64,000 nucleotides of DNA from the NCBI RefSeq assembly GCF_054482525.1, contig NZ_CM137006.1, one strand, 5' to 3'. Shown one piece after another: positions 36,813-64,000 of this stretch. The notes below the pieces were generated by a model that had not been told where the DNA came from, did not search any database, and saw nothing but the letters and a program-made list of their open reading frames with translations. Every line of letters starts with the position of its first letter. The stretch's first letter is position 1. The position numbers and the translations under genes were made by a program.

Positions 36813-36814
36813 GC

Positions 36815-37780: not shown

Positions 37781-37782
37781 TG

Positions 37783-38262: not shown

Positions 38263-39482
38263 AAATACTGGTCTACGGCATTAACTACTCGCCGGAGTTA
38301 ACCGGCATCGGCAAATACACCGGAGAGATGGTGGAATGGCTTGCGGCACAAGGTCATGAGGTGCGGGTCATTACCGCACCGCCTTACTACCCGCAGTGGC
38401 AGGTGGGCGAGAACTATTCCGCCTGGCGGTACAAACGAGAAGAGGGGGCCGCTACGGTGTGGCGCTGCCCGCTGTACGTGCCAAAACAGCCGAGCACCCT
38501 GAAACGCCTGTTGCATCTCGGCAGTTTTGCCGTCAGCAGTTTTTTCCCGTTGATGGCGCAACGTCGCTGGAAGCCGGATCGCATTATCGGCGTAGTGCCA
38601 ACGCTGTTTTGCACGCCGGGAATGCGCCTGCTGGCGAAACTCTCTGGCGCGCGTACCGTGCTGCATATTCAGGATTACGAAGTGGATGCCATGCTGGGGC
38701 TGGGCCTTGCCGGAAAAGGCAAAGGCGGCAAAGTGGCACAGCTGGCAACGGCGTTCGAACGTAGCGGACTGCATAACGTCGATAACGTCTCCACGATTTC
38801 GCGTTCGATGATGAATAAAGCCATCGAAAAAGGCGTGGCGGCAGAAAACGTCATTTTCTTCCCCAACTGGTCAGAAATTGCCCGTTTTCAGCATGTCGCA
38901 GACGCCGATGTTGATGCCCTTCGTAACCAGCTTGGCCTGCCGGATAACAAAAAAATCATTCTTTACTCCGGCAATATTGGTGAAAAGCAGGGGCTGGAAA
39001 ACGTTATTGAAGCAGCCGAACGTCTGCGCGATGAACCGCTGATTTTTGCCATTGTTGGGCAGGGCGGCGGCAAAGCGCGGCTTGAAAAAATGGCGCAGCA
39101 GCGTGGACTGCACAACATGCAATTTTTTCCGCTGCAATCGTATGACGCTTTACCCGCACTGCTGAAGATGGGCGATTGCCATCTGGTGGTGCAAAAACGC
39201 GGCGCGGCAGATGCCGTATTGCCGTCGAAACTGACCAATATTCTGGCGGTAGGCGGTAACGCGGTGATTACCGCAGAGGCCCACACAGAACTGGGGCAGC
39301 TTTGCGAAACCTTTCCGGGCATTGCGGTTTGCGTAGAACCGGAATCGGTCGAGGCGCTGGTGGCGGGGATCCGTCAGGCGCTCCTGCTGCCCAAACACAA
39401 CACGGTGGCACGTGAATATGCCGAACGCACGCTCGATAAAGAGAACGTGTTACGTCAATTTATAAATGATATTCGGGGATAA
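38259..39482 (+). CDS. wcaI: Colanic acid biosynthesis glycosyltransferase WcaI (GT4)
   Basis: 407-aa ORF; position and length match wcaI. Confidence 0.88.
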
Positions 39483-39484
39483 TT

Positions 39485-40921
39485 ATGGCGCAGTCGAAAC
39501 TCTATCCAGTTGTGATGGCAGGTGGCTCCGGTAGCCGCTTATGGCCGCTTTCCCGCGTACTTTACCCCAAGCAGTTTTTATGCCTGAAAGGCGATCTCAC
39601 CATGCTGCAAACCACCATCTGCCGCCTGAACGGCGTGGAGTGCGAAAGCCCGGTGGTGATTTGCAATGAGCAGCACCGCTTTATTGTCGCGGAACAGCTG
39701 CGTCAACTGAACAAACTCACCGAGAACATTATTCTCGAACCGGCAGGGCGTAACACGGCACCTGCCATTGCGCTGGCGGCGCTGGCGGCAAAACGTCATA
39801 GCCCGGAGAGCGACCCGTTAATGCTGGTCTTGGCGGCGGATCATGTGATTGCCGATGAAGATGCGTTCCGCGCCGCCGTGCGTAACGCCATGCCATATGC
39901 CGAAGCGGGCAAGCTGGTGACCTTCGGCATTGTGCCGGATCTCCCTGAAACCGGTTATGGCTATATTCGTCGCGGTGAAGTGTCTGCTGGTGAGCAGGAT
40001 ACGGTGGCCTTTGAAGTGGCGCAGTTTGTCGAAAAACCGAATCTGGAAACCGCTCAGGCCTATGTGGCAAGCGGCGAATATTACTGGAACAGCGGTATGT
40101 TCCTGTTCCGCGCCGGACGCTATCTAGAAGAACTGAAAAAGTATCGTCCGGATATTCTCGATGCCTGTGAAAAAGCGATGAGCGCCGTCGATCCGGATCT
40201 CGATTTTATTCGCGTGGATGAAGAAGCGTTTCTGGCCTGCCCGGAAGAGTCGGTGGATTACGCGGTCATGGAACGTACGGCAGATGCCGTTGTGGTGCCG
40301 ATGGATGCGGGCTGGAGCGATGTCGGCTCCTGGTCCTCTTTATGGGAGATCAGCGCCCACACCGCCGAGGGCAACGTTTGCCACGGCGATGTGATTAATC
40401 ACAAAACTGAAAACAGCTATGTGTACGCCGAATCTGGTCTGGTCACCACCGTCGGGGTGAAAGATCTGGTGGTGGTGCAGACCAAAGATGCGGTGCTGAT
40501 TGCAGACCGTAACGCGGTACAGGATGTGAAAAAAGTGGTCGAGCAGATCAAAGCCGACGGTCGCCATGAGCATCGGGTGCATCGCGAAGTGTATCGTCCG
40601 TGGGGCAAATATGACTCTATCGACGCGGGCGACCGCTACCAGGTGAAACGCATCACCGTGAAACCGGGCGAGGGCTTGTCGGTACAGATGCACCATCACC
40701 GCGCGGAACACTGGGTGGTTGTCGCGGGAACGGCAAAAGTCACTATCGACGGTGATATCAAACTGCTTGGTGAAAACGAGTCCATTTATATTCCGCTGGG
40801 GGCGACGCACTGCCTGGAAAACCCGGGGAAAATTCCGCTCGATTTAATTGAAGTGCGCTCCGGGTCTTACCTCGAAGAGGATGATGTGGTGCGCTTCGCG
40901 GATCGCTACGGGCGGGTGTAG
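39485..40921 (+). CDS. cpsB: Mannose-1-phosphate guanylyltransferase (colanic acid copy)
   Basis: 478-aa ORF with the nucleotidyltransferase N-terminus ([16 protein letters not shown]) and a C-terminal cupin domain. Confidence 0.93.
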
Positions 40922-41022
40922 CAGTTGAATAATCAACCGGATTAATTCTCCGGTAAATAACGACAAAAACAAAATTGGCCGTTTCGGTCAGGGCCAACTA
41001 TTGCCTGAAAAAGGGTAACGAC

Positions 41023-42393
41023 ATGAAAAAATTAACCTGCTTTAAAGTCTACGATATTCGCGGGAAATTAGGCGAAGAACTGAATGAAGATATTGCCTGG
41101 CGTATTGGTCGCGCCTATGGCGAATTTCTTAAACCGAAAACCATTGTTTTAGGCGGTGATGTCCGCCTCACCAGCGAAACCTTAAAACTGGCGCTGGCAA
41201 AAGGTTTACAGGATGCGGGCGTCGATGTGCTGGATATTGGCATGTCCGGCACCGAAGAGATCTATTTCGCCACGTTCCATCTCAGCGTGGATGGCGGCAT
41301 TGAAGTTACCGCCAGCCATAACCCGATGGATTACAACGGCATGAAGCTGGTGCGCGAAGGGGCTCGCCCGATCAGCGGCGATACCGGACTGCGCGACGTC
41401 CAGCGTCTGGCAGAAGCCAATGACTTCCCTCCTGTCGATGAAACCAAACGCGGTCGCTATCAGCAAATCAATCTGCGTGACGCTTACGTTGATCACCTGT
41501 TCGGTTATATCAACGTCAAAAACCTCACGCCGCTCAAGCTGGTGATCAACTCCGGGAACGGCGCGGCGGGGCCGGTGGTGGACGCCATTGAAGCCCGCTT
41601 TAAAGCCCTCGGCGCACCCGTGGAATTGATCAAAGTGCACAACACGCCGGACGGGAATTTCCCCAACGGTATTCCTAACCCGCTGCTGCCGGAATGTCGC
41701 GACGACACCCGCAATGCGGTCATCAAACACGGCGCGGATATGGGCATTGCCTTTGATGGCGATTTTGACCGCTGTTTCCTGTTTGACGAAAAAGGGCAGT
41801 TTATCGAGGGCTACTACATTGTTGGCCTGCTGGCAGAAGCGTTCCTCGAAAAAAATCCCGGCGCGAAGATCATCCACGATCCACGTCTCTCCTGGAACAC
41901 CGTTGATGTGGTGACTGCCGCAGGCGGCACCCCGGTAATGTCGAAAACCGGACACGCCTTTATTAAAGAACGTATGCGCAAGGAAGACGCCATCTACGGT
42001 GGCGAAATGAGCGCCCACCATTACTTCCGTGATTTCGCTTACTGCGACAGCGGCATGATCCCGTGGCTGCTGGTCGCCGAACTGGTGTGCCTGAAAGGGA
42101 AAACGCTGGGCGAACTGGTGCGCGACCGGATGGCAGCGTTTCCGGCAAGCGGTGAGATCAACAGCAAACTGGCGCACCCCGTTGAGGCGATTAATCGCGT
42201 CGAACAGCATTTTAGCCGTGAGGCGCTGGCGGTGGATCGCACCGATGGCATCAGCATGACCTTTGCCGACTGGCGCTTTAACCTGCGCTCCTCCAACACC
42301 GAACCGGTGGTGCGGTTGAATGTGGAATCGCGCGGCGATGTACCGCTGATGGAAGCGCGAACGCGAACTCTGCTGACGTTGCTGAACGAGTAA
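41023..42393 (+). CDS. cpsG: Phosphomannomutase (colanic acid copy)
   Basis: I place the start at the ATG at 41023 ([14 protein letters not shown]...), giving 456 aa. Phosphoserine loop TASHNP and metal-binding FDGDFDR are present. Confidence 0.93.
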
Positions 42394-47901: not shown

Positions 47902-49296
47902 ATGCCATTTAAAAAACTCTCCCGACGCACCTTCCTGACGGCAAGCTCGGCGCTTGCCTTCCTCCATACCCCTTTCGCTCGCGCACTTCCCGACCAACAG
48001 AGCGTTAACATTAACGACTACAACCCTCACGACTGGATCGCCTCATTTAAACAAGCCTTCAGCGAAGGGCAAACAGTCGTCGTGCCTGCCGGATTGGTTT
48101 GCGACAATATCAACACCGGCATCTTCATTCCTCCTGGCAAAACGTTACACATCCTTGGAAGCCTGCGCGGCAACGGCAGAGGGCGATTTGTTTTACAGGA
48201 CGGCAGCCAGGTGACAGGGGAGGAGGGCGGCAGTATGCATAACATCACCCTGGATGTGCGTGGTTCTGACTGCACCATCAAAGGGTTGGCGATGAGCGGC
48301 TTTGGCCCGGTAACGCAGATTTATATCGGCGGCAAAAACAAACGGGTCATGCGCAACCTGACCATCGATAACTTGACCGTTAGCCACGCTAATTACGCCA
48401 TTTTACGCCAGGGATTTCATAACCAGATTATCGGTGCCAACATCACCAACTGTAAGTTCAGCGACTTACAGGGCGACGCCATTGAATGGAACGTGGCAAT
48501 TAACGACAGTGATATTTTGATTTCCGACCACATCATCGAGCGCATCAACTGTACTAACGGAAAAATCAACTGGGGCATTGGCATAGGCCTTGCGGGAAGT
48601 ACCTACAATAACAATTACCCGGAAGACCAGACAGTGAAAAATTTTGTTGTGGCGAATATCACGGGATCGGATTGTCGGCAGTTGATACATGTTGAAAATG
48701 GTAAACATTTTGTTATTCGTAATATCAAAGCCCGCAATATCACACCGGATTTCAGTAAGAAAGCAGGTATTGATAACGCCACAGTTGCTATTTATGGTTG
48801 TGACAACTTTGTGATTGATAATATTGAAATGATTAATAGTGCCGGGATGTTAATCGGCTATGGGGTAATTAAAGGCAAATATCTCTCGATACCGCAGAAT
48901 TTCCGGGTGAATAATATTCAACTGGATAATACTCATCTTGCTTATAAATTGCGCGGCATTCAAATCTCCGCCGGGAATGCTGTCTCCTTTGTGGCGCTGA
49001 CTAACATTGAGATGAAGCGTGCGTCGCTGGAGTTACACAACAAACCGCAACATCTTTTTATGCGTAATATCAATGTGATGCAGGAATCCTCAGTTGGACC
49101 CGCATTGAGCATGAACTTCGACATGCGCAAAGACGTACGAGGTGTCTTTATGGCGAAAAAAGAAACACTGCTATCTCTTGCAAATGTTCATGCGGTGAAT
49201 GAAAGAGGGCAAAGCTCTGTCGATATCGACAGGATTAATCACCATATTGTTAATGTGGAAAAGATTAACTTTAGATTGCCGGAACGGAGGGAGTAG
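47902..49296 (+). CDS. wcaM: Colanic acid biosynthesis protein WcaM
   Basis: 464-aa ORF with a Tat/Sec-like N-terminus ([21 protein letters not shown]); last gene of the colanic acid cluster. Confidence 0.88.
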
Positions 49297-49453
49297 ATTT
49301 GCGACCATTCATAAACTTACTGGATATAATGTTCTAAAAGATTATAATCCTCACACTAACTGTTAAAGCTGGGGCTGGGCAGCATTGACTACTCAGGGAA
49401 GGTACTCATCTTTATCTTGTGTTTCTTACGTAACAACCAGACTAAAGTGATTT

Positions 49454-50449
49454 ATGAACGATAACGTTTTGCTCATAGGAGCTTCCGGATTCGTAGGAAC
49501 CCGACTACTTGAAACGGCAATTGCTGACTTTAATATCAAGAACCTGGACAAACAGCAGAGCCACTTTTATCCAGAAATCACACAGATTGGCGATGTTCGT
49601 GATCAACAGACACTCGACCAGGCGTTAGCCGGTTTTGACACTGTTGTACTACTGGCAGCGGAACACCGCGATGATGTCAGTCCTACTTCTCTCTATTATG
49701 ATGTCAACGTTCAGGGTACCCGCAATGTACTGGCGGCCATGGAAAAAAATGGCGTTAAAAATATCATCTTTACCAGTTCCGTTGCTGTTTATGGTTTGAA
49801 CAAACACAACCCTGACGAAAACCATCCACACGACCCTTTCAACCACTACGGCAAAAGTAAGTGGCAGGCAGAGGAGGTGCTGCGTGAATGGTATAACAAA
49901 GCACCAACAGAACGTTCATTAACCATCATCCGTCCTACCGTTATCTTCGGTGAACGCAACCGCGGTAACGTCTATAACTTGCTGAAACAGATCGCTGGCG
50001 GCAAGTTTATGATGGTGGGCGCAGGGACTAACTATAAGTCCATGGCTTATGTTGGAAACATTGTTGAGTTTATTAAGTACAAACTGAAGAATGTTGCCGC
50101 AGGTTATGAGGTTTATAACTACGTTGATAAGCCAGACCTGAACATGAACCAGTTGGTTGCTGAAGTTGAACAAAGCCTGAACAAAAAGATCCCTTCTATG
50201 CACTTGCCTTACCCACTAGGAATGCTGGGTGGATATTGCTTTGATATCCTGAGCAAAATTACGGGCAAAAAATACGCTGTCAGCTCTGTGCGCGTGAAAA
50301 AATTCTGCGCAACTACACAGTTTGACGCAACGAAAGTGCATTCTTCAGGTTTTGTGGCACCGTATACGCTGTCGCAAGGTCTGGATCGAACTCTGCAGTA
50401 TGAATTCGTCCATGCCAAAAAAGACGACATAACGTTTGTTTCTGAGTAA
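49454..50449 (+). CDS. gne: NAD-dependent epimerase of the Gne/Gnu type (UDP-GalNAc or GlcNAc-PP-undecaprenol 4-epimerase family)
   Basis: 331-aa ORF with a Rossmann N-terminus (LLIGASGFVGTRLLE), located between wcaM and galF. Assignment rests on the fold and this characteristic position. Confidence 0.7.
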   Translation: MNDNVLLIGASGFVGTRLLETAIADFNIKNLDKQQSHFYPEITQIGDVRDQQTLDQALAGFDTVVLLAAEHRDDVSPTSLYYDVNVQGTRNVLAAMEKNGVKNIIFTSSVAVYGLNKHNPDENHPHDPFNHYGKSKWQAEEVLREWYNKAPTERSLTIIRPTVIFGERNRGNVYNLLKQIAGGKFMMVGAGTNYKSMAYVGNIVEFIKYKLKNVAAGYEVYNYVDKPDLNMNQLVAEVEQSLNKKIPSMHLPYPLGMLGGYCFDILSKITGKKYAVSSVRVKKFCATTQFDATKVHSSGFVAPYTLSQGLDRTLQYEFVHAKKDDITFVSE

Positions 50450-50691
50450 TGCAGACGAGTCAGAGAAAAAAGGACCAGGTTAGACTACGATTATTCGGAA
50501 AGAGGTACTGATTAAATTATCAGTATGTGGATTTCCGAGTAATCCGAGTAACCCAGATGCTGATGGTGTGTAGTGTTATCGTAAGGTTTAATCAAAGTTA
50601 TGCGGAGCTAAGCTTTGGTATATAGCCATAACGTTTGGCTAACCTATGGCAATAATTTACGCACTATCAGCCACTTAGAGGTAGGAAAAGA

Positions 50692-51585
50692 ATGACGAAT
50701 TTAAAAGCAGTTATACCGGTAGCAGGTCTTGGGATGCATATGTTGCCTGCCACTAAGGCGATACCCAAAGAGATGCTACCGATCGTCGACAAGCCAATGA
50801 TTCAGTACATTGTTGACGAGATTGTGGCTGCAGGGATCAAAGAAATCCTCCTGGTAACTCATGCGTCCAAGAACGCGGTCGAAAACCACTTCGACACCTC
50901 TTATGAATTAGAATCTCTCCTTGAACAGCGCGTGAAGCGTCAGCTGCTGGCGGAAGTGCAGTCGATCTGTCCACCGGGAGTGACCATTATGAACGTGCGT
51001 CAGGGCGAACCTTTAGGTTTAGGCCACTCCATTTTGTGTGCGCGACCCGCCATTGGCGACAACCCATTTGTCGTGGTACTGCCAGACGTAGTGATCGACG
51101 ACGCCAGCGCCGACCCGCTGCGCTACAACCTTGCTGCCATGATTGCGCGCTTCAATGAAACGGGCCGTAGCCAGGTGCTGGCAAAACGTATGCCGGGTGA
51201 CCTTTCTGAATACTCCGTTATTCAGACCAAAGAGCCGCTGGATCGTGAAGGCAAAGTCAGCCGCATTGTTGAATTTATCGAAAAACCGGATCAGCCGCAG
51301 ACGCTGGACTCAGACATCATGGCCGTTGGTCGCTATGTGCTTTCTGCGGATATTTGGCCGGAACTTGAACGCACTCAACCTGGTGCATGGGGGCGTATTC
51401 AGCTGACTGATGCCATTGCTGAACTGGCGAAAAAACAGTCCGTTGATGCAATGCTGATGACCGGTGACAGTTACGATTGTGGCAAGAAAATGGGCTATAT
51501 GCAGGCGTTTGTGAAGTATGGACTGCGCAACCTGAAAGAAGGGGCGAAGTTCCGTAAAGGTATTGAAAAGCTGTTAAGCGAATAA
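50692..51585 (+). CDS. galF: UTP-glucose-1-phosphate uridylyltransferase paralogue GalF
   Basis: 297-aa ORF starting [41 protein letters not shown]; marks the 5' flank of O-antigen clusters. Confidence 0.93.
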
Positions 51586-51838
51586 TGAAAATCTGACCGG
51601 ATGTAACGGTTGATAAGAAAATTATAACGGCGGTGAGGATTCGTGGGGCTAATTGTACTCATTGCCTCATTCTTTCTTTATACCGTTCTAAATATGAGTA
51701 ACAATAACTTTTCAATAGGCATTTATTGTGGGAGGCTGAGATTTTCTCCATCTCTGAAGCGATTTGGTAAAACGTTCAGAGTTAAGCTTTTCGAACTAAC
51801 CATAACGGTTAATGCTAGTTACAACTAGGACATGCATG

Positions 51839-51877
51839 CAGTACGCTGGTAGCTGTTGAGCCAGGGGCGGTAGCGTG
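51839..51877 (+). promoter_or_regulatory. JUMPstart element with ops site (GGCGGTAGCGTG) in the O-antigen cluster leader
   Basis: CAGTACGCTGGTAGCTGTTGAGCCAGGGGCGGTAGCGTG has the same architecture as the wza-leader element; ops core at 51866-51877, about 80 bp upstream of wzx. Confidence 0.85.
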
Positions 51878-51957
51878 AATTAAATGTTTATCCCATATTA
51901 CTTAACAAATTGTAAACTATCGTGCAAAATAAGACTTGTTAAGTACGTAGGCTCGTT

Positions 51958-53193
51958 ATGTTAAAAAACATCATCTATTTATTAAGCGTTCAAGGTGGCA
52001 ATTATATATTTCCATTGGTCACACTGCCTTATCTTGTCAGGATCCTTGAACCTACAGGATACGGGATATATGGGTATAGTTTTGCTGTGGTCCAATATTT
52101 TATATTATTTATTGATTACGGATTTAACTACTCAGCGCCCAAAATCATATCAATATCAAGGGAAAATACTGATTCCATAAGTAAAGTTTTTTGGAATGTA
52201 ACGTTTATCAAAATAATTGCAGCATCTCTTGGTTTGTTAATTATTTATTTAATTTCGGAATTGAATATCATTGATTACCAAATTAAATTTATCATTCTTG
52301 CATACATATCTGTCGTAGGAAATTTAATATATCCAGTATGGTTTTTTCAAGGGCTGGAAAAAATGTTAGGAATAGCGATAAGTATGTTTTCCGCACGCTT
52401 ACTTACACTATGTTTAACATTTTTATTGGTTAAAAGTGAAAAGGATCTTGGTATAGCGATAACAATACAATCATCAATAACAGTTATTGCAGGTATAATA
52501 TCTACATATTTTTTATTTTCTCTTAAAAAAATAATATGGGTACCACCATCCTTATCCAAAATGAAAGAGTTAATTTATGATGGATGGCATTACTTCATTT
52601 CCTCTGCAGCAATAAGCCTTTATACTACTAGTTCAACAATAATATTAGGTGCATTATCAGGAACAACTGCAGTGGGATATTTTATCGCTGCAGATAAAAT
52701 TAGGCTTGCACTACAAGGCGTTATTGGTCCTATAACCCAAGCTGTTTTTCCTAGAGTAACTTATATAATGAAGGATAATCATGACGATGGACTATTATTA
52801 GCCAGGAAAGTGTTTCGATGGCAATTTTCACTGATGTTCGTACTTTCCATATTTCTTTACTTTTTTGCAGACGATATAATTTTAATCATGTATGGAAAAA
52901 CGTATCATGAATCTTTAGAAATACTCAAGGTTTTAGCTTTTACTCCAGCAATAGTTACGGTAAGTAATTATATTGCAATTTTAGTAATGATCCCTATTGG
53001 TATGAAAAAAGAATTTACAAAAATTATTACTACCAGTGGATTAATAGGCCTACTGATAATTACTTATTTGACTAATGAATACTCAGGAGTTGGTACAGCA
53101 ATAGGAGTTATTTCAACTGAGTTTATAATAATGGCGAGATTTTACTTTTTGATTAAGAAAACAAATAAATTAAATAATTTAAATTTATTGTAG
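51958..53193 (+). CDS. wzx: O-antigen flippase Wzx
   Basis: 411-aa AT-rich polytopic membrane ORF with a PST-family N-terminus (...IFPLVTLPYLVRILEPTGYGIYG...). Confidence 0.8.
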   Translation: MLKNIIYLLSVQGGNYIFPLVTLPYLVRILEPTGYGIYGYSFAVVQYFILFIDYGFNYSAPKIISISRENTDSISKVFWNVTFIKIIAASLGLLIIYLISELNIIDYQIKFIILAYISVVGNLIYPVWFFQGLEKMLGIAISMFSARLLTLCLTFLLVKSEKDLGIAITIQSSITVIAGIISTYFLFSLKKIIWVPPSLSKMKELIYDGWHYFISSAAISLYTTSSTIILGALSGTTAVGYFIAADKIRLALQGVIGPITQAVFPRVTYIMKDNHDDGLLLARKVFRWQFSLMFVLSIFLYFFADDIILIMYGKTYHESLEILKVLAFTPAIVTVSNYIAILVMIPIGMKKEFTKIITTSGLIGLLIITYLTNEYSGVGTAIGVISTEFIIMARFYFLIKKTNKLNNLNLL

Positions 53194-53201
53194 GGCTAAC
53201 A

Positions 53202-53927
53202 ATGAATAAACCAACTTTAACAATAGTTACCGTTGTGTACAATGGCGAAATGTATATCGAAGATACTATAAAAAGTGTCTTATCACAAAACTGCAATGAT
53301 GACATTGAATATATTATAATTGATGGTGCATCAACGGATAATACTCTAAATATTGTTAATTCTTACAAAAATGAAATTTCATATATCATTTCTGAAAATG
53401 ATAATGGTATATATGATGCAATGAATAAAGGTGTGTTAAAAGCATCTGGAAATTATATAGGATTTATAAACGCTGATGATTTTTATAATAAAGATGTATT
53501 ATGTCAAGTAATAAAAGTAATGAAAGAAAATAAATATGATGTTATTTATGGAAATATGTCTTTGGTAGAGGCTGATAGCTTGGATGTTATTCAGGTCCGG
53601 AGGCCTAAAGACTGGAAACTACATATAGATATGAATTTAAGCCATCCGGCCACATTTATTAGAAAAGATATCCACAGAGAAAATTTATTTAATACTAGCT
53701 ATAAAATTGCTTCTGATTATGATCTTTTGCTAAAATTGAAGAAACAAGGTTATATCTTTCATTATATTGATAAAAATATCTCTTCGATGAGAAATGCCGG
53801 CCTTAGCGCTAAAAATGTAAAATTAGCATTGGAGGAAGCGAGACAAATCCGAAAGAAAAGAAACGGGAAATTATATGCGGCGTTAGCAGATATTTACCTA
53901 TTTATGAGAAAAGTTATAAAAAGATGA
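53202..53927 (+). CDS. O-antigen glycosyltransferase, GT2 family (WcaE-like)
   Basis: 241-aa ORF with IIIDGASTDNT and [11 protein letters not shown] motifs shared with WcaE. Confidence 0.75.
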   Translation: MNKPTLTIVTVVYNGEMYIEDTIKSVLSQNCNDDIEYIIIDGASTDNTLNIVNSYKNEISYIISENDNGIYDAMNKGVLKASGNYIGFINADDFYNKDVLCQVIKVMKENKYDVIYGNMSLVEADSLDVIQVRRPKDWKLHIDMNLSHPATFIRKDIHRENLFNTSYKIASDYDLLLKLKKQGYIFHYIDKNISSMRNAGLSAKNVKLALEEARQIRKKRNGKLYAALADIYLFMRKVIKR

Positions 53928-55159
53928 TTAATAGAAACATAAAAATTAGTGCTTCATTTATTTCAATAATTTATTTGCCTTTTGCTTTATTATTAGCAAT
54001 GATTGAAATGATTAATGGGGCCAGATGGAGTGTTTATGTATGTTCATTTATGCTAGGGGTACTAGCATTTTTGTTAATACCTTATGAAAATTGGGATTTG
54101 ACTAGGCATTATGAAACATATTTATATGTTAGTCAAACATCACTAAACAAAGTTTTTGAAAATAGTGACAATAGATATATTACAATAAATACTGTTATTT
54201 ATTTATTTAAATCTTTAGGAATAAAAAAAGAATTTTTACCTTTTTTTTCAACATTTTTATCATATATTTTTTATTTTAATATATATGTTAATCACATTAA
54301 AAAATACAATCCGGAATTATCTCATAGATGTATATATTTATATATTCTAATAAGCGTAATCCCATTTTTTGCTATAGCTAGTTCATTGCGGCAATATCTT
54401 GCATTTAGTATTATGCTTTATATGATCATACAGTATTTCACCAGTGAAAATAATAGGTATAAGTCACAAAAAATTATATTCTCTGCAATTATTTCATGTT
54501 GTATTCATCCCAGCGCAATACTATTGCTAGGTGTTTTTTTTGTTAGCAAATTAATAAGACTTAACAAAACAATATTGTATTTAATAATATTAGTTCTAAT
54601 CCTTAACCATGATGGATTAATATCTTCTTTGCTATTTCAATTGATTAGGCCATTATTGGAAAGCTTAGGTTTTTACTTTCCCGAATATATGGACTCTGTA
54701 ACCATAGGCATAAGCAATAGCTTGCTGAGCACTAATGAATATATCTTGAATAAGATCATATTACCGTCAGTGTTTTTTATTTTTACTTTTATCTATTTAA
54801 TTTTATTTAATAAAAAAATGACGAGGCAAGAGTCACAAATCAAAAATTTTTGCAGTTTACTTCTTTTGCTGATATGCCTTTTATCGTTATCGCCTGATTT
54901 ATTTTATCGATTTTCCATTTTCTGGGTGTTATTATATAGTTATATATTTTTCTCCTACGATATTAATAAAATTAGCAAACTATGTAAGCATCTGATCTTC
55001 TTAATACTCATTACCGCATGTTCAATCATAAATTTGGCACAGGCAAATATGGGTAAAGATATTATTTATGTGTCTTGGTGCGATATATTGTATAAGCCCT
55101 CATTATTCCTATTCAATAAAGAAGTTAAATCAGCAGAATATATAAGAGTGAGTCAATAA
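53924..55159 (+). CDS. wzy: O-antigen polymerase Wzy
   Basis: 411-aa very hydrophobic, AT-rich ORF with many predicted membrane segments and no recognisable catalytic motif, as is typical of Wzy. Confidence 0.7.
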   Translation: MINRNIKISASFISIIYLPFALLLAMIEMINGARWSVYVCSFMLGVLAFLLIPYENWDLTRHYETYLYVSQTSLNKVFENSDNRYITINTVIYLFKSLGIKKEFLPFFSTFLSYIFYFNIYVNHIKKYNPELSHRCIYLYILISVIPFFAIASSLRQYLAFSIMLYMIIQYFTSENNRYKSQKIIFSAIISCCIHPSAILLLGVFFVSKLIRLNKTILYLIILVLILNHDGLISSLLFQLIRPLLESLGFYFPEYMDSVTIGISNSLLSTNEYILNKIILPSVFFIFTFIYLILFNKKMTRQESQIKNFCSLLLLLICLLSLSPDLFYRFSIFWVLLYSYIFFSYDINKISKLCKHLIFLILITACSIINLAQANMGKDIIYVSWCDILYKPSLFLFNKEVKSAEYIRVSQ

Positions 55160-55160
55160 A

Positions 55161-56228
55161 ATGTCCATTGGAGTCTTTAAGCTGTATGAAAATAAAATAG
55201 GTGGCACTGAGAAAGCAGTTGAAAATCTAATTGATATATTAACTAAAAACAGCCTACAAGTGAGATGTTTTTCAGCAATAAACGCACAAGAGATACAAGT
55301 TAGAGAAGATAATCGGAAAACCTACTTATTCCAAGACAATACTGCATATGAAGAAAGCAAATTAAGGTTTTACATTAAATATTTGTTTTTTTTGAGTGCC
55401 AAAAGTAAAGACCTTGAATTAATAATTTCCACGGATATAGCTACATCATCATTATTGTTATTGATTGGTTTTTTTCGGTGTAATAAGAATAAAATTATTT
55501 GCTGGGAACATTATCCATTTGACAAGAATAGTATTTTTTGGAGAAAAGTATTTAAATTTCTTTTGTCTCTTAATAAAAAAGCTGTAGTAGTTTGTAATTC
55601 TCACAAGGAAAAAGATAAGTTTACTTTTTGTAAAAGGGTTGTAATTATACCAAATTCAATCAAAACGCAAAAATATAAGCGCATACATCAAGGAAAAGAA
55701 ACTCTTGATTTGATTTATATTGGTCGGATTGTTAAAGATAAAGGAGTTGAAAGGTTAATTAATGCAGTAATAAATCACCCGTCTACAAAAAAGTATGTTT
55801 TACACATTGTAGGAGGTGGTCAAGAGCTGGAGTATCTCAAATCTAAATATAAGAATAACAACCAAATACACTTTCATGGACCGAGTTTAAACACAGATGT
55901 TTTTTTGGCAAAAAGTGATGTTTTTGTATCCGGTTCATACTTTGAATGTTTTCCTGTTACAATACTTGAAGCTATGTCCTACGGATTACCTGTAATTTCA
56001 ATGGATATATCTGGAGGGACAAGTAGCGTGATTTCTTCATCGGGTGGCGGATTTGTGTGTCAATCTCAAATTGAATTTCAGGAAAAACTAACTTACTTTG
56101 AAGATAATGTTAAACGAACCGAACACGGAAATGCAGGATTCCTATTCGTGAATAGACATTATACAGAAGAAATAGTTAGTGCTCAGTGGATGAGTTTGAT
56201 CAATCGAGCCAATAGTCAAGAAAATTAA
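55161..56228 (+). CDS. O-antigen glycosyltransferase, GT4 family
   Basis: 355-aa ORF with a GT-B C-terminal motif region (...SGSYFECFPVTILEAMSYGLPVIS...). Confidence 0.75.
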   Translation: MSIGVFKLYENKIGGTEKAVENLIDILTKNSLQVRCFSAINAQEIQVREDNRKTYLFQDNTAYEESKLRFYIKYLFFLSAKSKDLELIISTDIATSSLLLLIGFFRCNKNKIICWEHYPFDKNSIFWRKVFKFLLSLNKKAVVVCNSHKEKDKFTFCKRVVIIPNSIKTQKYKRIHQGKETLDLIYIGRIVKDKGVERLINAVINHPSTKKYVLHIVGGGQELEYLKSKYKNNNQIHFHGPSLNTDVFLAKSDVFVSGSYFECFPVTILEAMSYGLPVISMDISGGTSSVISSSGGGFVCQSQIEFQEKLTYFEDNVKRTEHGNAGFLFVNRHYTEEIVSAQWMSLINRANSQEN

Positions 56229-56248
56229 GGTATTGGAGCTATTAAAGT

Positions 56249-57265
56249 ATGAGCATACTTGTGACTGGTGGGGCTGGCTATATTGGCTCACATGCTATAT
56301 TAACTTTATTGCAAAATGGATATGATGTTATATCGCTAGATAATTATTGCAATTCCTCTCCAAAATCTCTAGAACGAGTAGAGGAAATTTGCTTATCTAA
56401 GATAAAAAAATTACGTGGTGATATTAGAGATAGACATATATTAAAAAATATCTTTTCAAAATATAATGTTTCTACTGTAATGCATTTTGCGGGTTTAAAA
56501 TCTGTTAACGAGTCCATTAAAAAACCATTAGAATATTACGACACAAATCTTTTGGGGACTCTAATATTACTTGATGAAATGCAGAAAGCGAATATTTCTA
56601 ATCTAATTTTTAGTTCGTCTGCTACTGTCTATGGCAATCCTCATTATGTTCCAATATCTGAAAAACACCCTGTCGGTGAGGTGATCAATCCGTACGGTCG
56701 TTCAAAGTTTATGGTGGAACATATATTGCGTGATTTTTGTAACGCGAATAGCGACGCAAATATCACAATACTAAGATATTTTAATCCTGTAGGTGCTCAT
56801 AAGACTGGATTAATTGGAGAAGATCCTTTAGGAACTCCTAATAACCTGTTTCCCTATGTTGCGCAAGTCGCAATTGGAAAATTACCCTATCTAAATGTTT
56901 TTGGTAATAAATATATGACAAAAGATGGAACAGGTGTAAGAGATTATATCCATGTAGTCGATTTAGTTGAGGGGCATCTTGCCGCTTTAAAAAATCTCAA
57001 TAGAAACCGGGGGCTTAAAGTTTTTAATTTAGGCACTGGTCAAGGTTATAGTGTGTTAGATATCATCGACGCTTTTAAACTGGAAACAGGACGCGATATA
57101 CCTTTCCGTATCGTTTCTGAGCGAAATGGAGATGTGGCTGAATGTTGGTCCGATCCTTCCTTAGCAAACGAGCAGCTAAGTTGGGTTGCTAAAAGGACTC
57201 TTAATAATATGGTGGAAGATGCATGGAGATGGCAAACAATGAATCCAAATGGATATAAAGAGTAA
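56249..57265 (+). CDS. GalE-family UDP-hexose 4-epimerase (UDP-Glc/Gal or UDP-GlcNAc/GalNAc)
   Basis: 338-aa ORF starting MSILVTGGAGYIGSH..., with catalytic YGRSK. Substrate specificity cannot be told from sequence alone. Confidence 0.8.
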   Translation: MSILVTGGAGYIGSHAILTLLQNGYDVISLDNYCNSSPKSLERVEEICLSKIKKLRGDIRDRHILKNIFSKYNVSTVMHFAGLKSVNESIKKPLEYYDTNLLGTLILLDEMQKANISNLIFSSSATVYGNPHYVPISEKHPVGEVINPYGRSKFMVEHILRDFCNANSDANITILRYFNPVGAHKTGLIGEDPLGTPNNLFPYVAQVAIGKLPYLNVFGNKYMTKDGTGVRDYIHVVDLVEGHLAALKNLNRNRGLKVFNLGTGQGYSVLDIIDAFKLETGRDIPFRIVSERNGDVAECWSDPSLANEQLSWVAKRTLNNMVEDAWRWQTMNPNGYKE

Positions 57266-57333
57266 ATTGAAACAATTATAATCATCCATTTCATTGCTTA
57301 CTGTATTGTTATCTATATATATGAAAACAAAAA

Positions 57334-58341
57334 ATGAAAATATTATATGATGGGATTGTGAAAAGTTTACAATCATATGGTGGTATCACTGTATACTTTG
57401 AAGAAATCATTAAGAGATTAAAAAATGACGAATACAAATTCATTCAATTTAATGATAAAAATGAAAATCACAATGATGATCTCCATCGGCCATGCCGGTT
57501 TTTAGAACGATATAGATGTTTTGAAGCATTAAAAAGTGATTCAGATTACAGTATATTTCATTCTACATATTATCGGGTTCCGAAAGATGGGGAATATGCG
57601 GTTGTGACCACGGTCCACGATTTCACATATGAATTGTATATGAAAGGACTTCGGCGCAATGTTCATAGCTTACAAAAAAGATGGGCTGTGAAACATAGCG
57701 ATGCAATCATTTGTGTCTCTAATAATACAGCCAAGGATTTAATTAATTTCTTTAAGGTTGATGAAAAAAAGATACATGTTATTCATAATGGTGTATCGGA
57801 AGATTATAGACACTTAAATCTAGAAAAAGAAAATTTTGTGCTTTTTGTCGGTGCTCGTTCAGGATATAAAAATTTTGAGCTTGCAGTTAAAGCCGTTTCT
57901 AAACTTTTTGATACTAATCTTAAAATAGTCGGCGGAGGTGGTTTAAATAAAGCAGAAATGAAGTTACTATCTGAATATCTTCCAGAAAGATTCCAGTACT
58001 TAGGGAAGGTATCAAATGAAAAACTAAATATATTATATAATTCGGCTTATTGCTTAATCTATCCTTCAGAATATGAAGGGTTTGGAATTCCCTTGCTTGA
58101 GGCTATGCGAACTGGCTGTCCTGTGATAGCCGTAAATAGATCATCAATACCCGAGGTTGTGGGGGATAGTGCGATTTTAGTCGAAGAAGTATCAATTGAA
58201 AGTTTATTCTCAGCTTTATTAAGTGTAGAAGCTAACGCTAATGAATTAAAAAATAAAGGATTAGCGCAATCTAATAAATTTTCATGGGGGAAGTGTTTCT
58301 CCGAAACATATAATCTATATAAATCACTATCTAAGTTTTGA
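57334..58341 (+). CDS. O-antigen glycosyltransferase, GT4 family
   Basis: 335-aa ORF with the motif region ...[25 protein letters not shown]... Confidence 0.75.
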
Positions 58342-58351
58342 GAGGTTATTT

Positions 58352-59473
58352 ATGTGTAAGAAAGCTTTAATTACAGGAATTACCGGGCAAGATGGTTCCT
58401 ACTTGGCAGAATTTCTGCTTAAAAAAGGCTATGAGGTTCATGGAATAAAACGTCGATCTTCCTTGTTTAATACTGACCGTATTGATCATATATATCAAGA
58501 CCCACACCATCGTAATTTAAAATTACAACTTCATTATGGTGATTTAACAGATACTTCTAATTTGACTCGGATATTATCTGAAGTTCAACCTGATGAAGTT
58601 TATAATCTTGGCGCAATGAGTCACGTAGCTGTTTCCTTCGAATCCCCAGAATATACAGCTGATGTTGATGCTATAGGTACTTTACGATTATTGGAAGCTA
58701 TTCGTTTTTTGGGATTAGAAAAAAAAACCCGATTTTATCAGGCGTCAACCTCTGAATTGTATGGATTAGTTCAGGAAGTTCCACAAAAAGAGACAACGCC
58801 GTTCTATCCTCGTTCACCTTATGCCGTAGCTAAACTGTATGCATATTGGATCACTGTAAACTATCGTGAGTCTTATGGAATGTATGCATGTAACGGTATT
58901 TTGTTCAATCATGAATCCCCACGTCGTGGGGAAACGTTTGTAACACGTAAAATCACACGTGCTATAGCTAATATATCGCAGGGAATAGAAAAATGCTTAT
59001 ATCTTGGCAACATGGATTCTTTACGCGATTGGGGGCATGCGAAAGATTATGTTCGTATGCAATGGATGATGCTTCAACAAGACCAGCCAGAAGACTTTGT
59101 TATTGCCACCGGCAAACAAATATCTGTACGTGAATTTGTCCGTATGTCTGCTAAAGAAGTTGGACTTGAACTTGAGTTTTCCGGTACTGGTGTTGATGAG
59201 ATTGCATTTGTTGTAAATAAAACATCAGATTGCGCCGTTGGTGTTAATATTGGTGATGTTATTGTTCGCGTTGACCCTCGTTATTTTCGACCAGCAGAAG
59301 TTGAAACTCTTCTTGGTGATCCAACAAAAGCAAAAAATGTCTTGGGTTGGGAGCCAGAGATTACAGTTGAAGAAATGTGTGCAGAAATGGTGGCTAGTGA
59401 TTTAGAAAAAGCTAAACAGCATGCACTTCTTAAAAGCCATGGTTTTGACGTGGCAGTCTCTTTGGAGCGTTAA
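58352..59473 (+). CDS. gmd: GDP-mannose 4,6-dehydratase (O-antigen copy)
   Basis: 373-aa ORF with high protein similarity by eye to the colanic-acid Gmd (35691..36812), but with AT-rich codon usage. Confidence 0.93.
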
Positions 59474-59476
59474 AGT

Positions 59477-60442
59477 ATGACCAAGAAGCGAATTTTTGTG
59501 GCTGGACATCGTGGGATGGTTGGTTCTGCTATTTGTCGTCAATTATTAGCACGTAATGATGTTGAGTTAATTGTCAAAACTCACAAAGAACTCGATTTGA
59601 CAGTTCAAAAGGATGTTGAATGTTTTTTTGAGCAAGAGAGAATAGATCAGGTTTACCTTGCAGCAGCAAAAGTAGGAGGAATTCATGCTAATAACACTTT
59701 TCCAGCTGAATTTATTTATCAGAACCTTCTTATTGAAAGCAATATTATTCACTCATCTTACAAAGCGGGCATAAAGAAACTATTATTCTTAGGGTCAAGT
59801 TGTATCTATCCAAAGTTTGCAGAACAGCCAATGAAAGAATCTGCACTTTTGACGGGAACTCTTGAGCCTACTAATGAGCCTTATGCTATTTCCAAAATAG
59901 CAGGTATAAAGCTATGTGAATCTTATAATCGCCAATATGGATGTGATTATCGCAGTGTAATGCCTACTAACTTATATGGTATGAATGATAATTTTCATCC
60001 CAATAACTCACATGTAATTCCAGCGCTTATGCGGCGTTTTCATGAAGCAAAGGAACTTGGTTTAAATGAAGTGGTTGTCTGGGGAACGGGAACTCCAAAA
60101 CGCGAGTTTTTATATGTTGATGATATGGCCGCTGCATCAGTATATGTGATGGAGCTTGATGATGAAATTTATAAAAAAAATACTCAACCAATGTTATCTC
60201 ATATTAACGTAGGTACTGGTGTTGATTGTTCCATACGTGAAATGGCAGAAACAATGGCTTTAGTTGTTGGCTATGATGGAAAAATTGTTTTTGATATAAC
60301 AAAACCAGATGGTTCGCCTCGTAAACTTATGGATGTTACACGCCTTGAGAATTTGGGTTGGAAATATCGTTATAATTTAAAACAAGGACTAGAATTAACA
60401 TATAAATGGTTTATAAATAATCTTGACTCATTTAGGAGTTAA
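59477..60442 (+). CDS. fcl: GDP-L-fucose synthase (O-antigen copy)
   Basis: 321-aa ORF starting [19 protein letters not shown]..., paralogous to the colanic-acid Fcl. Confidence 0.93.
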
Positions 60443-60444
60443 TA

Positions 60445-60900
60445 TTGAACAAGAGATTAGAAACAGAGTTATTTAAATCAATAGTTGAACATACTCCACT
60501 AATCTCGATAGACCTTATTATAAGAAACGAAGATGGTAAGGCGCTGCTTGGTCAGCGCCTTAATCGTCCAGCACAAAATTATTGGTTTGTGCCGGGGGGA
60601 CGGATTCTTAAAGATGAGTCTTTCGAGAACGCATTCAAAAGAGTTACTTTAGAAGAATTGGGTGTTCAAATTAGCATTAATGAAGCAAAATTTCTTGGGA
60701 TTTATGAACATTTCTACAGCGACAATTTTTCTGGGACTTGTTTTTCAACTCATTATGTCGTACACGGATATGAGATTAGTTTGATGCCACATCAAATTAA
60801 CTATCCAACACTACAACATAGTACTTACAATTGGTTCGATATAGCCGAATTGTTAGCTAATTCCTCAGTTCATCAGTACACAAAAAATTATTTTAAGTGA
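60445..60900 (+). CDS. gmm: GDP-mannose mannosyl hydrolase (Nudix; O-antigen copy)
   Basis: 151-aa ORF with an apparent TTG start at 60445, seven nt after an AGGAG; similar to the colanic-acid Gmm core (...NYWFVPGGR...). Confidence 0.75.
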   Translation: MNKRLETELFKSIVEHTPLISIDLIIRNEDGKALLGQRLNRPAQNYWFVPGGRILKDESFENAFKRVTLEELGVQISINEAKFLGIYEHFYSDNFSGTCFSTHYVVHGYEISLMPHQINYPTLQHSTYNWFDIAELLANSSVHQYTKNYFK

Positions 60901-60911
60901 AGGTTATTTAT

Positions 60912-62297
60912 ATGCTACTTCCTGTTGTAATGGCCGGTGGTTCTGGAACTAGATTGTGGCCACTTTCTCGAACACTATATCCGAAGCAATTCCTATCGTT
61001 AACTAGTCGTTTGACTATGCTACAAGAGACCTTAAGAAGGCTTGAAGGGGTTGAACATCGTCCTGCTCTGGTTATTTGTAATGAAGTTCATCGTTTTATC
61101 GTTGCAGAACAGATGCGTAATGTAAATTTAGCGAATAGTGGCATTTTACTAGAGCCGATAGGTCGTAATACAGCCCCCGCAGTTGCGCTTGCTGCTCTTA
61201 AAGCGATTTCATCAGGTGAGGATCCAATACTGCTTGTACTAGCAGCCGATCATGAAATACAAGACCAAAAGCGCTTTATATCGTCAATATTGGCTGCAAA
61301 AGAATTTGCAGAGGAAGGTAAGCTGGTAACTTTTGGTATTGTGCCAACCAAACCCGAAACTGGATATGGCTACATAAAAACCGGAGAAAATTTAAATGAA
61401 TATGGTTTTAAAGTTTCTGCTTTTGTTGAAAAGCCTGAGCTAGATGTGGCCAAAAAATATCTTGAAGATGGAGATTATCTTTGGAATAGTGGAATATTCA
61501 TGTTTAGGGCTTCTGTGTTTATTGATGAGTTGAATAAATTTAGACCAGACATACTAAAAATATGCCAACAAGCATTGAAGTCCTCTACACAAGATCTTGA
61601 TTTTATCCGTATAGATAATGACTCATTTAGTTGTTGCCCTGAAGAATCCATTGATTACGCTGTTATGGAGAAAACAACAGAGGCTGTGGTAGTTCCATTA
61701 AATGCCCACTGGAGCGATGTTGGTTCTTGGTCTGCATTATGGGAAATTAGCAGAAAAGATAAAAGTGGAAATGCAATTAGAGGAGATGTATTAATTCATG
61801 ATTCTTCTGACAGTTATCTTTACTCACAACATAGATTAATTGGTGTAGTAGGAGTTAAAGATTTAGTAGTTGTTGAAACTAAAGATGCTATTCTCGTTGC
61901 GCATAAAGATAAAGTTCAACAGGTAAAAAATATTGTAGAAAAACTTAAAGTTAATAACCGTACGGAATATCTGCAGCATCGTGAAATATTTAGGCCATGG
62001 GGCAGTCATGACTCTATAGCGGAAGGATCTCGATTTGAGGTTAAACATGTCGTTATTCATCCTGGACATAAAACTGCTAAACAGATTCATTACCATCGTA
62101 CTGAGCATTGGATTGTTGTTTCTGGAACAGCAAAAGTCCATTATGAAGATGAAATATTTCTTGTTTCTGAAAATGAATCAACTTATATACCAATAGGTGT
62201 ACCTCATTTTATTGAGAATCCAGGAAAGATCCCTTTGGAGATTATTGAGGTACGTTCAGGTGTCTACTTGGATGAAGATGATGTTGTTAGAATCTAA
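60912..62297 (+). CDS. manC: Mannose-1-phosphate guanylyltransferase (O-antigen copy)
   Basis: I place the start at the ATG at 60912 ([20 protein letters not shown]...); the ORF track uses an in-frame GTG at 60897. Paralogue of cpsB. Confidence 0.88.
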   Translation: MLLPVVMAGGSGTRLWPLSRTLYPKQFLSLTSRLTMLQETLRRLEGVEHRPALVICNEVHRFIVAEQMRNVNLANSGILLEPIGRNTAPAVALAALKAISSGEDPILLVLAADHEIQDQKRFISSILAAKEFAEEGKLVTFGIVPTKPETGYGYIKTGENLNEYGFKVSAFVEKPELDVAKKYLEDGDYLWNSGIFMFRASVFIDELNKFRPDILKICQQALKSSTQDLDFIRIDNDSFSCCPEESIDYAVMEKTTEAVVVPLNAHWSDVGSWSALWEISRKDKSGNAIRGDVLIHDSSDSYLYSQHRLIGVVGVKDLVVVETKDAILVAHKDKVQQVKNIVEKLKVNNRTEYLQHREIFRPWGSHDSIAEGSRFEVKHVVIHPGHKTAKQIHYHRTEHWIVVSGTAKVHYEDEIFLVSENESTYIPIGVPHFIENPGKIPLEIIEVRSGVYLDEDDVVRI

Positions 62298-62380
62298 AAT
62301 GATGCTGGATACTAATGCAACATTATTATTCGTAATGCTGTACTGACGTTATTTAATTATGATTATTATTGGATGTTAAA

Positions 62381-63127
62381 ATGAAAGTCAGTATTATTAC
62401 AGTGACTTATAATAGTGAAAAGACTTTAAGGGATACTTTAGAGTCAATAGAGTTGCAAACCTATAAAGATATAGAGTATATAATTATTGATGGTGGTTCT
62501 ACAGATAATACGTTAAAACTAATTAACGAAGTATCAACAAGAGTAACCAAATGTCTATCAGAAAGCGATAACGGTATCTATGATGCTTTAAATAAAGGTA
62601 TAAATTTATCTACGGGAGATATTATTGGATTCGTTCATTCTGATGACCTTTTAGCAAGACCTGATATTATTGAAACTATTGTAAGCCGTTTCCATGAGAC
62701 AAAAGCGGATGTTGTATACGGTGATTTGGTTTTTTTCGAAAAAAACCAAACTGATATAATCAAACGATACTGGCGTAGTGGTCCTTTTAAACGTTCTAAG
62801 CTATCATTAGGCTGGGCACCACCGCATCCATCTTTCTATATGAGGAGGGAATTATATAAAGACGATGGATATTTTGATTTATCCTATAGGATTGCTGCAG
62901 ACTATGATCAGATGGTCAGGATTTTGAAACGTGATGATATTAAAGTTATTTATGTTCCTCAAGTATTTGTAAAGATGAGATTGGGTGGGGAAAGTACCAG
63001 AATTGATAACGCGATATCAAGTACAAAGGAAATTGTAGAAGTTATGAAAAACCATAATGTAAATTGGAAAATTGCTATCATTATCAGAAAAATCTCAAAA
63101 CTAATGCAATTGTTTGCGCATAAATAA
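62381..63127 (+). CDS. O-antigen glycosyltransferase, GT2 family (WcaE-like)
   Basis: I place the start at the ATG at 62381 (MKVSIITVTYNSEKTL...), with IIIDGGSTDNT and DNGIYDALNKG motifs; the ORF track starts at a TTG at 62369. Confidence 0.75.
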   Translation: MKVSIITVTYNSEKTLRDTLESIELQTYKDIEYIIIDGGSTDNTLKLINEVSTRVTKCLSESDNGIYDALNKGINLSTGDIIGFVHSDDLLARPDIIETIVSRFHETKADVVYGDLVFFEKNQTDIIKRYWRSGPFKRSKLSLGWAPPHPSFYMRRELYKDDGYFDLSYRIAADYDQMVRILKRDDIKVIYVPQVFVKMRLGGESTRIDNAISSTKEIVEVMKNHNVNWKIAIIIRKISKLMQLFAHK

Positions 63128-63151
63128 TTTTATTATTGGTAAGGTTTTTAT

Positions 63152-64000
63152 ATGAAAAAATTAACCTGCTTTAAAGCCTATGATATTCGCGGGAAATTAG
63201 GCGAAGAACTGAATGAAGATATTGCGTGGCGCATTGGTCGCGCCTATGGCGAATTTCTCAAACCGAAAACCATTGTGTTAGGCGGTGACGTCCGCCTCAC
63301 CAGCGAAACCTTAAAACTGGCGCTGGCGAGAGGTTTACAGGATGCGGGCGTCGATGTGCTGGATATCGGCATGTCCGGCACCGAAGAGATCTATTTCGCC
63401 ACGTTCCATCTCGGCGTGGATGGCGGCATTGAAGTTACCGCCAGCCATAATCCGATGGATTATAACGGCATGAAGCTGGTTCGCGAGGGGGCTCGCCCGA
63501 TCAGCGGAGATACCGGACTGCGCGACGTCCAGCGTCTGGCTGAAGCCAACGACTTTCCTCCCGTCGATGAAACCAAACGCGGTCGCTATCAGCAAATCAA
63601 CCTGCGTGACGCTTACGTTGATCACCTGTTCGGTTATATCAATGTCAAAAACCTCACGCCGCTCAAGCTGGTGATCAACTCCGGGAACGGCGCAGCGGGT
63701 CCGGTGGTGGACGCTATCGAAGCCCGCTTTAAAGCCCTCGGCGCACCTGTGGAATTGATCAAAGTGCACAACACGCCGGACGGCAATTTCCCCAACGGTA
63801 TTCCTAACCCGCTGCTGCCGGAATGTCGCGACGACACCCGCAATGCGGTCATTAAACACGGCGCGGATATGGGCATTGCCTTTGATGGCGATTTTGACCG
63901 CTGTTTCCTGTTTGACGAAAAAGGGCAGTTTATCGAGGGCTACTACATTGTCGGCCTGCTGGCAGAAGCGTTCCTCGAAAAAAATCCCGGCGCGAAGATC
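63152..64000 (+). CDS. manB: Phosphomannomutase (O-antigen copy), 5' 283 codons; the gene continues past the right edge of the window
   Basis: Starts [14 protein letters not shown]... Nucleotide sequence is nearly identical to cpsG from the ATG onward and is GC-rich, unlike the AT-rich genes just upstream. Confidence 0.9.

Follow-up and report, generated by a model that had tools for sequence, protein, structure and literature searches.

The AT-rich block at positions 51958 to 63127 of a stretch of 64,000 nucleotides (contig NZ_CM137006.1 of RefSeq assembly GCF_054482525.1, called the window below) is, to judge from its sequence, very probably the biosynthesis cluster of an O antigen that is already described, that of Escherichia coli serogroup O11 (genotype Og11), carried by a strain that is nearly identical over the whole window to strain PCN033. 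We put the probability of this identification at roughly 0.93. The O11 cluster is a known one: an earlier reading, made without database searches and referred to below as the sequence-only reading, was correct in seeing an O-antigen cluster here, and the observation is an ordinary one.

The comparison with other genomes carries the identification. A megablast search of 5,426 complete E. coli genomes with the 11,170-bp block found it covered over 100% of its length, at an identity of at least 99%, in 65 of them; the genes for the flippase, wzx, and the polymerase, wzy, bear the RefSeq names "O11 family O-antigen flippase" and "O11 family O-antigen polymerase" in all 30 genomes among the matches listed for these 65. 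A more sensitive search with blastn used only the segment formed by wzx, the adjacent gene of a family 2 glycosyltransferase (GT2) and wzy. It returned the same 65 genomes at 99% identity or more (range 99.6-100%), every other genome covering at most 8% of the query, and O11-named genes were found in the nine genomes, out of nine, among the matches listed for the full segment. Even in this search the distribution of matches is bimodal, and no intermediate relative of the segment was found among the 5,426 genomes. The short stray matches fall on GT2 motifs or on the wzx genes of O132 and O173, at about 70% identity. A Wzx protein of exactly the sequence found here is recorded from at least 1000 contigs, under the name "O11 family O-antigen flippase".

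These figures bear directly on the reading in which the cluster is either of an undescribed O type or one of O86, O127 and O128. The sequence-only reading had held that the serogroup could not be assigned from sequence, had named these three groups as fitting, and had kept an undescribed type open, adding that a match of wzx and wzy above 97% to a typed serogroup would speak against novelty. The three groups do share the generic gene content of the locus, namely a pathway to GDP-L-fucose and a gnu gene upstream of galF. From end to end, however, the block matches, at 99.6-100%, genomes whose wzx and wzy have "O11 family" names, and this reading deserves practically no weight. The clusters of O86, O127 and O128 were rejected as candidates, coverage of the wzx-GT2-wzy segment above 8% being confined to O11-named genomes. 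These three groups use alpha-1,2-fucosyltransferases of family GT11, and no gene of that family is present in the cluster according to the RefSeq annotation and NCBIfam.

The closest genome is that of PCN033, an extraintestinal pathogenic strain of E. coli (ExPEC) from pigs. Over its full length the window aligns collinearly with this genome, and of the eight mismatches in 64 kb two fall within the block; from 42958 to 64000 the alignment is free of gaps and has three mismatches in 21,043 bp. The O11 cluster of PCN033 (NZ_CP006632.1, 2210250-2221419) has all eleven genes in unchanged order, again between galF and manB-gnd, and differs at two bases in 11,170 bp. We took an identity of about 97-98% to an O11-typed strain as the mark of an O11 wzx or wzy: here wzx shows no base difference from PCN033, and wzy differs by a single base and a single residue, Y124H. 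Gene content and order agree as well, up to the end of the window, which falls inside manB and short of gnd. PCN033 was serotyped as O11, and its cluster was matched by its authors to that of the O11 reference strain G1207, GenBank HQ388393 (PMC4578781). NCBIfam contains no model of an O11 Wzx or Wzy (0 families); the "O11 family" names of RefSeq must consequently stem from another type of rule, and the identity is based on exact-sequence look-up and on the serotyped strain PCN033.

Several points weigh against this assignment. The link to the cluster of the O11 type strain (HQ388393) runs through PCN033 and through RefSeq naming. The sequence gives a genotype, Og11, and not necessarily an antigen, although the antigen expressed is most probably O11. 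The strain carries two substitutions relative to PCN033, Y124H in Wzy and Y107C in a family 4 glycosyltransferase (GT4). On the chemical side, what is said of sugars four and five of the repeating unit, and of every linkage position, depends on a synthesis paper and on one of its citations, and each glycosyltransferase has been given its role from the mechanism of its family alone. Finally, the provisional group OX19 has been reported to possess a cluster identical to that of O11, and yet the two do not cross-react serologically, the entry for cross-reaction being "No" (DebRoy et al. 2016, PMC4732683); the sequence of the window cannot separate the two groups.

This last point leads to an alternative in which a strain with the O11/OX19 genotype expresses the OX19 antigen, with modification genes located outside the cluster, or else subtle substitutions, accounting for the difference, and the two non-synonymous changes relative to PCN033 could be counted in its favor. 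Three observations make it improbable. The nearest genome, at eight bases in 64 kb, belongs to a strain serotyped as O11; the collection of DebRoy et al. holds 28 cultures of OX19 and 527 of O11, which is about twenty times commoner (PMC4732683); and position 124 of Wzy is not conserved, with Tyr, Phe or Ile among homologues.

The two substitutions, which make up all the differences from PCN033 within the cluster, lie at 54293, where wzy codon 124 reads CAC here and TAC in PCN033, and at 55480, in codon 107 of the GT4 gene at 55161..56228, where Cys replaces the Tyr of PCN033; both are non-synonymous. The Wzy with His124 is found exactly on one contig in a search of about 15 billion proteins, the form with Tyr124 being common. 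This rarity is what speaks for a reading in which the cluster is intact on paper and the strain rough or semi-rough, either because Y124H or Y107C impairs the enzyme that bears it or because of lesions in wecA, waaL or wzzB, outside the window. Against it stand the eleven reading frames, all of full length and collinear with PCN033, the variation at Wzy position 124 among homologues, and the presence of the GT4 with Cys107 on 22 contigs, which marks it as a circulating allele; we regard a rough phenotype as very unlikely. For the same variability of position 124, the idea that Y124H strikes a conserved residue was rejected. Hardly any credit is due, either, to the proposal that one or both substitutions alter polymerization or a linkage, such that a cluster of O11 genotype yields a modified and serologically distinct polymer; if it were true, substitutions of this kind could bear on the puzzle of identical O11 and OX19 clusters without cross-reaction. 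The preferred identification remains that of an O11 cluster.

Two related observations may be recorded here. In another genome of O11 genotype, that of strain ES8 (NZ_CM184330.1, 1953566-1957544), the wzx-GT2-wzy region contains an insertion of the IS1B family, which may make that strain rough. Outside the O-antigen cluster, the window differs from PCN033 by a non-synonymous change at 46483, in codon 364 of wcaK, the gene of the pyruvyl transferase of colanic acid synthesis: Gln here, Lys in PCN033.

The AT-richness that first drew attention to the block was computed in windows and is far from uniform. The G+C content is 0.330 over 51958-63127, against 0.533 over 1-48400 and 0.532 over 63128-64000, and the contrast of 33% with 53% upstream bears out what the sequence-only reading had noticed by eye. 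In windows of 500 bp, the 22 that lie in the cluster have a mean of 0.331 (range 0.24-0.41) and the 96 upstream a mean of 0.533 (standard deviation 0.04; Mann-Whitney p = 4e-13). At third codon positions the G+C content is 0.23-0.30 in each of the eleven cluster genes, and 0.56 in galF. The two edges of the block are not alike: on the right the change is abrupt, with values of 0.27-0.40 in 200-bp windows at 63000-63100 and then 0.54 at 63200, and on the left it is graded, the G+C content declining from about 51400 to 52100. Ahead of the main drop at wzx there is also a transitional stretch, 48500-51600, of G+C content 0.41-0.47, running from the 3' end of wcaM through gnu and into galF; over their whole length, gnu has 0.45 and galF 0.51.

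Eleven intact and closely packed open reading frames fill the block, all on the + strand: wzx, a GT2 gene, wzy, a GT4 gene, a galE-like epimerase gene, a second GT4 gene, gmd, fcl, gmm, manC and a second GT2 gene. This is the inventory given by the sequence-only reading, and its view of the block as an O-antigen cluster of Wzx/Wzy type, at the galF end of the locus, is upheld by Pfam, NCBIfam and RefSeq alike. The epimerase of gne/gnu type that it had seen just upstream of galF is likewise in place: gnu, the gene of the GlcNAc-PP-undecaprenol 4-epimerase, at 49454..50449 on the + strand, is base-identical to the PCN033 coding sequence of WP_000999477.1, which RefSeq names N-acetyl-alpha-D-glucosaminyl-diphospho-ditrans,octacis-undecaprenol 4-epimerase and NCBIfam places in the epimerase family of the short-chain dehydrogenases/reductases (SDR). 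Next comes galF (50692..51585, + strand), the conserved left flank of O-antigen loci, annotated after the collinear PCN033 locus in RefSeq. In the spacer between galF and wzx lies a JUMPstart element with its ops sequence (51839..51877, + strand), the signal for RfaH-dependent antitermination in the leader of the cluster. It scores 57.0 bits with Rfam RF01707 (gathering score 35; E = 1.9e-10), and the ops octamer, GGCGGTAG, is matched exactly at 51866-51873, 85 bp ahead of the start of wzx.

A second JUMPstart, at 26551-26589 (Rfam, 57.3 bits) with its ops octamer at 26578-26585, heads the colanic-acid operon, about 180 bp upstream of wza. Two further ops octamers, at 15155 on the - strand and at 39245, lie outside any JUMPstart match and are taken as chance matches; in all, four were found in the window where 1.35 are expected.

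The first gene of the block, wzx (51958..53193, + strand), encodes the O11 O-unit flippase, of 411 amino acids, recognized by Pfam PF01943 over residues 2-268 (E = 4.7e-57). It is followed on the same strand by the gene of a WcaE-like GT2 glycosyltransferase of 241 amino acids (53202..53927), which RefSeq assigns to glycosyltransferase family 2 and whose best NCBIfam match is WcaE, at E = 1.1e-28 and below the curated cut-off. The O11 O-antigen polymerase gene wzy (53924..55159, + strand; 411 amino acids) owes its identification to its RefSeq name and to Pfam PF14897, of the EpsG family, found on a 99%-identical cluster representative and also on a Salmonella homologue of Wzy. A Wzx of the PST/MOP family and a Wzy polymerase are thus both encoded in the cluster, as expected of the Wzx/Wzy-dependent pathway. 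All open reading frames of at least 140 amino acids in 51958-64000 are accounted for, and no wzm or wzt gene of an ATP-binding cassette (ABC) transporter is among them. In PCN033, whose locus is nearly the same, the chain-length gene wzzB lies downstream of ugd.

Two genes of GT4 type frame the epimerase, all three on the + strand. The first, at 55161..56228, encodes a Glycos_transf_1 protein of 355 amino acids (Pfam PF00534, 5.6e-26, and PF13439, 1.2e-4); the GalE-family UDP-hexose 4-epimerase follows at 56249..57265 (NCBIfam TIGR01179 galE, 427.5 bits, cut-off 262.3), and then the second GT4, at 57334..58341, with 335 amino acids (PF00534, 9.4e-29; PF13439, 3e-15; family 4 in RefSeq). The second WcaE-like GT2 gene closes the block at 62381..63127 on the + strand (Pfam PF00535, E = 4.7e-29); its start is that of RefSeq, against a TTG at 62369 in the list of open reading frames. 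The second GT2 is 36% identical to the first, and the identities to the WcaE of the window are 31% for the first and 29% for the second. The NCBIfam matches of all four glycosyltransferases stay below the curated cut-offs.

Between the second GT4 and the last GT2, again on the + strand, the genes for GDP-L-fucose run in the order gmd (GDP-mannose 4,6-dehydratase, 58352..59473), fcl (GDP-L-fucose synthase, 59477..60442), gmm (GDP-mannose mannosyl hydrolase, 60445..60900, with a TTG start) and manC (mannose-1-phosphate guanylyltransferase / mannose-6-phosphate isomerase, 60912..62297). The first two are named after the RefSeq annotation, their products being 83% and 71% identical, respectively, to those of the colanic-acid gmd and fcl of the window; gmm has both the RefSeq annotation and NCBIfam NF011963 (194.8 bits, cut-off 146), and manC has TIGR01479 (740.5 bits, cut-off 373). 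The start of manC is given by the RefSeq coding sequence of PCN033 as 60912, against a GTG at 60897 in the list of open reading frames. With manB, the phosphomannomutase gene, of which the window holds the 5' 849 bases (63152..64000, + strand; cpsG in RefSeq, 1371 bp in PCN033), all five genes of the pathway are present and match the expected families. The sequence-only reading had placed the full pathway in the block. This holds for gmd, fcl, gmm and manC, but manB lies outside the span it had given, is cut by the end of the window and is not AT-rich.

The case of manB is peculiar in other respects. The gene starts at 63152, past the AT-rich block, and has a G+C content of 0.53; compared with the colanic-acid cpsG at 41023-42393, it is 96.5% identical in nucleotides and 98.9% in amino acids over the first 282 residues. 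It looks like the manB of the O-antigen cluster has been replaced, or gene-converted, by the cps copy. The switch in composition takes place within about 100 bp spanning the junction of GT2 and manB (63127/63152), and the cpsG copy is 22 kb upstream. Directly ahead of that copy, at 40969-41018, is an algC RNA motif (Rfam RF02929, 78 bits). Rfam gives no match to this motif ahead of the manB of the O-antigen cluster, where the gap between the last GT2 gene and manB is only 24 bp, and the sequence shared with cpsG therefore begins at or near the coding region.

The rest of the colanic acid (wca/cps) cluster, at about 26768-49296 of the same window, has to be kept apart from the O11 genes, since it contains a second full pathway to GDP-L-fucose (gmd, fcl, gmm, cpsB and cpsG), a GT2 of its own, WcaE, a flippase of Wzx type and its own JUMPstart. 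Composition distinguishes the two sets: the colanic-acid set (35691-42393) has a G+C content of 0.54-0.56, the O11 set (58352-64000) one of 0.35-0.39, manB excepted. So does divergence, with amino acid identities to the O11 genes of 83% for gmd, 71% for fcl, 49% for gmm and 58% for manC/cpsB, manB being again the exception. Colanic acid is a capsule-like exopolysaccharide whose synthesis is started by WcaJ on glucose; it is not an O antigen.

What the O11 cluster would make can be compared with a published structure. This gives the O11 unit as a pentasaccharide, four of whose linkages are alpha and one beta: beta-D-GalNAc (N-acetylgalactosamine) stands at the reducing end, followed by alpha-L-fucose, alpha-D-mannose and an alpha-linked 2-acetamido sugar that bears a fifth, alpha-linked, sugar (PMC4906483). 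The sequence-only reading had expected about four sugars; the count of glycosyltransferases in the cluster, four, together with the WecA step, gives the right size, five. Of the sugars it had named, fucose and GalNAc are in the polymer (PMC4906483), galactose finds no support, not being among the O11 residues identifiable from that paper, and mannose had been missed. By a published rule, a gnu gene lying upstream of galF means that the O unit starts with GalNAc (PMC7685785). The donor of the fifth sugar is cited, in PMC4906483, to Lonn 1985. Neither the linkage positions of O11 nor the names of its fourth and fifth sugars were found in the E. coli O-antigen review or in the Salmonella pangenome paper. 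As fifth sugar, a second L-fucose is probable, because the donor is credited to work that we take to be the standard source of a perbenzylated ethyl thio-L-fucoside, ethyl 2,3,4-tri-O-benzyl-1-thio-L-fucopyranoside.

The structure and cluster of O11 were reportedly published by Li et al. in 2011 alongside those of Salmonella enterica O16, said to be its structural and genetic counterpart. Beyond E. coli, the nearest homologue of Wzy that was found is a partial protein of S. enterica, at 56-57% identity. An identity of about 56% would fit the published relationship between O11 and O16, and would point to a diverged orthologous cluster with a different allele.

On the basis of homology and annotation, biosynthesis can be proposed to run as follows. 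Transcription would start from the spacer between galF and wzx, the JUMPstart/ops leader letting RfaH carry RNA polymerase through the AT-rich operon of 12 kb. ManB, ManC, Gmd and Fcl would make GDP-D-mannose and GDP-L-fucose, Gmm being a predicted GDP-mannose hydrolase. WecA, encoded elsewhere, would make GlcNAc-PP-undecaprenol, which Gnu would epimerize to GalNAc-PP-undecaprenol; GalNAc would therefore be the first sugar. The four glycosyltransferases would then add the other four sugars, all in alpha linkages. Following the general Wzx/Wzy pathway, Wzx would flip the pentasaccharide-PP-undecaprenol across the inner membrane, and Wzy would polymerize it through the single beta linkage, that of GalNAc. 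WzzB would set the chain length and WaaL would ligate the polymer to lipid A-core, both being encoded outside the window.

The distribution of the four additions among the enzymes can be suggested from their mechanisms. Enzymes of family GT2 invert the configuration of the donor, and those of GT4 retain it. Since inverting enzymes give alpha products only from a beta-linked donor, here GDP-beta-L-fucose, the two WcaE-like GT2 are probably two alpha-L-fucosyltransferases, which would add the two alpha-L-fucoses; the two retaining GT4, at 55161..56228 and 57334..58341, probably add alpha-D-mannose and the alpha-D-N-acetylhexosamine (HexNAc). With the four linkages made by transferases being alpha, the single beta linkage would be the one made by Wzy. 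A role for the GT2 in the transfer of fucose is also suggested by their resemblance to WcaE, because wcaE and wcaI are described as acting in colanic acid synthesis at steps two and three, where fucose is added (PMC12075129, 2025).

The in-cluster epimerase can be examined at a single residue. Against GalE of strain K-12 it shows 51% identity in a gap-free alignment of 338 columns, in which its Cys299 stands opposite Tyr299. Its best relative of solved structure is human GALE, and there the cysteine aligns with the Cys of the motif DVAACY: the protein combines a GalE fold with a small residue in the place of the Tyr299 of E. coli GalE, as does human GALE with Cys307. Position 299 is known from structural work as the substrate gatekeeper, which decides whether N-acetylated substrates fit. 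Because Cys299 stands where K-12 GalE has Tyr299, the product of 56249..57265 is probably of Gne type, interconverting the members of two pairs, UDP-GlcNAc/UDP-GalNAc and UDP-Glc/UDP-Gal, and it probably also supplies UDP-GalNAc for the second, internal, HexNAc.

Far from both polysaccharide clusters, the window also contains two tandem Sib antitoxin RNAs on the - strand, at 11037-11179 and 11366-11514 (Rfam RF00113, 142 and 150 bits). The copies are about 82% identical to each other, and they pair with ibsA and an ibs-family gene, type I toxin genes annotated in PCN033.

For the organism, the assignment to Og11 types the strain, and has little importance beyond a correct annotation; O11 has been reported to be prevalent in China among ExPEC from pigs, and PCN033 is a virulent strain (PMC4578781). 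Within the cluster, the pairing of inverting and retaining families with the anomeric linkages of the unit would account for the presence of two genes of each kind, GT2 and GT4, and position 299 suggests that the GalE homologue is a Gne and not a redundant GalE.

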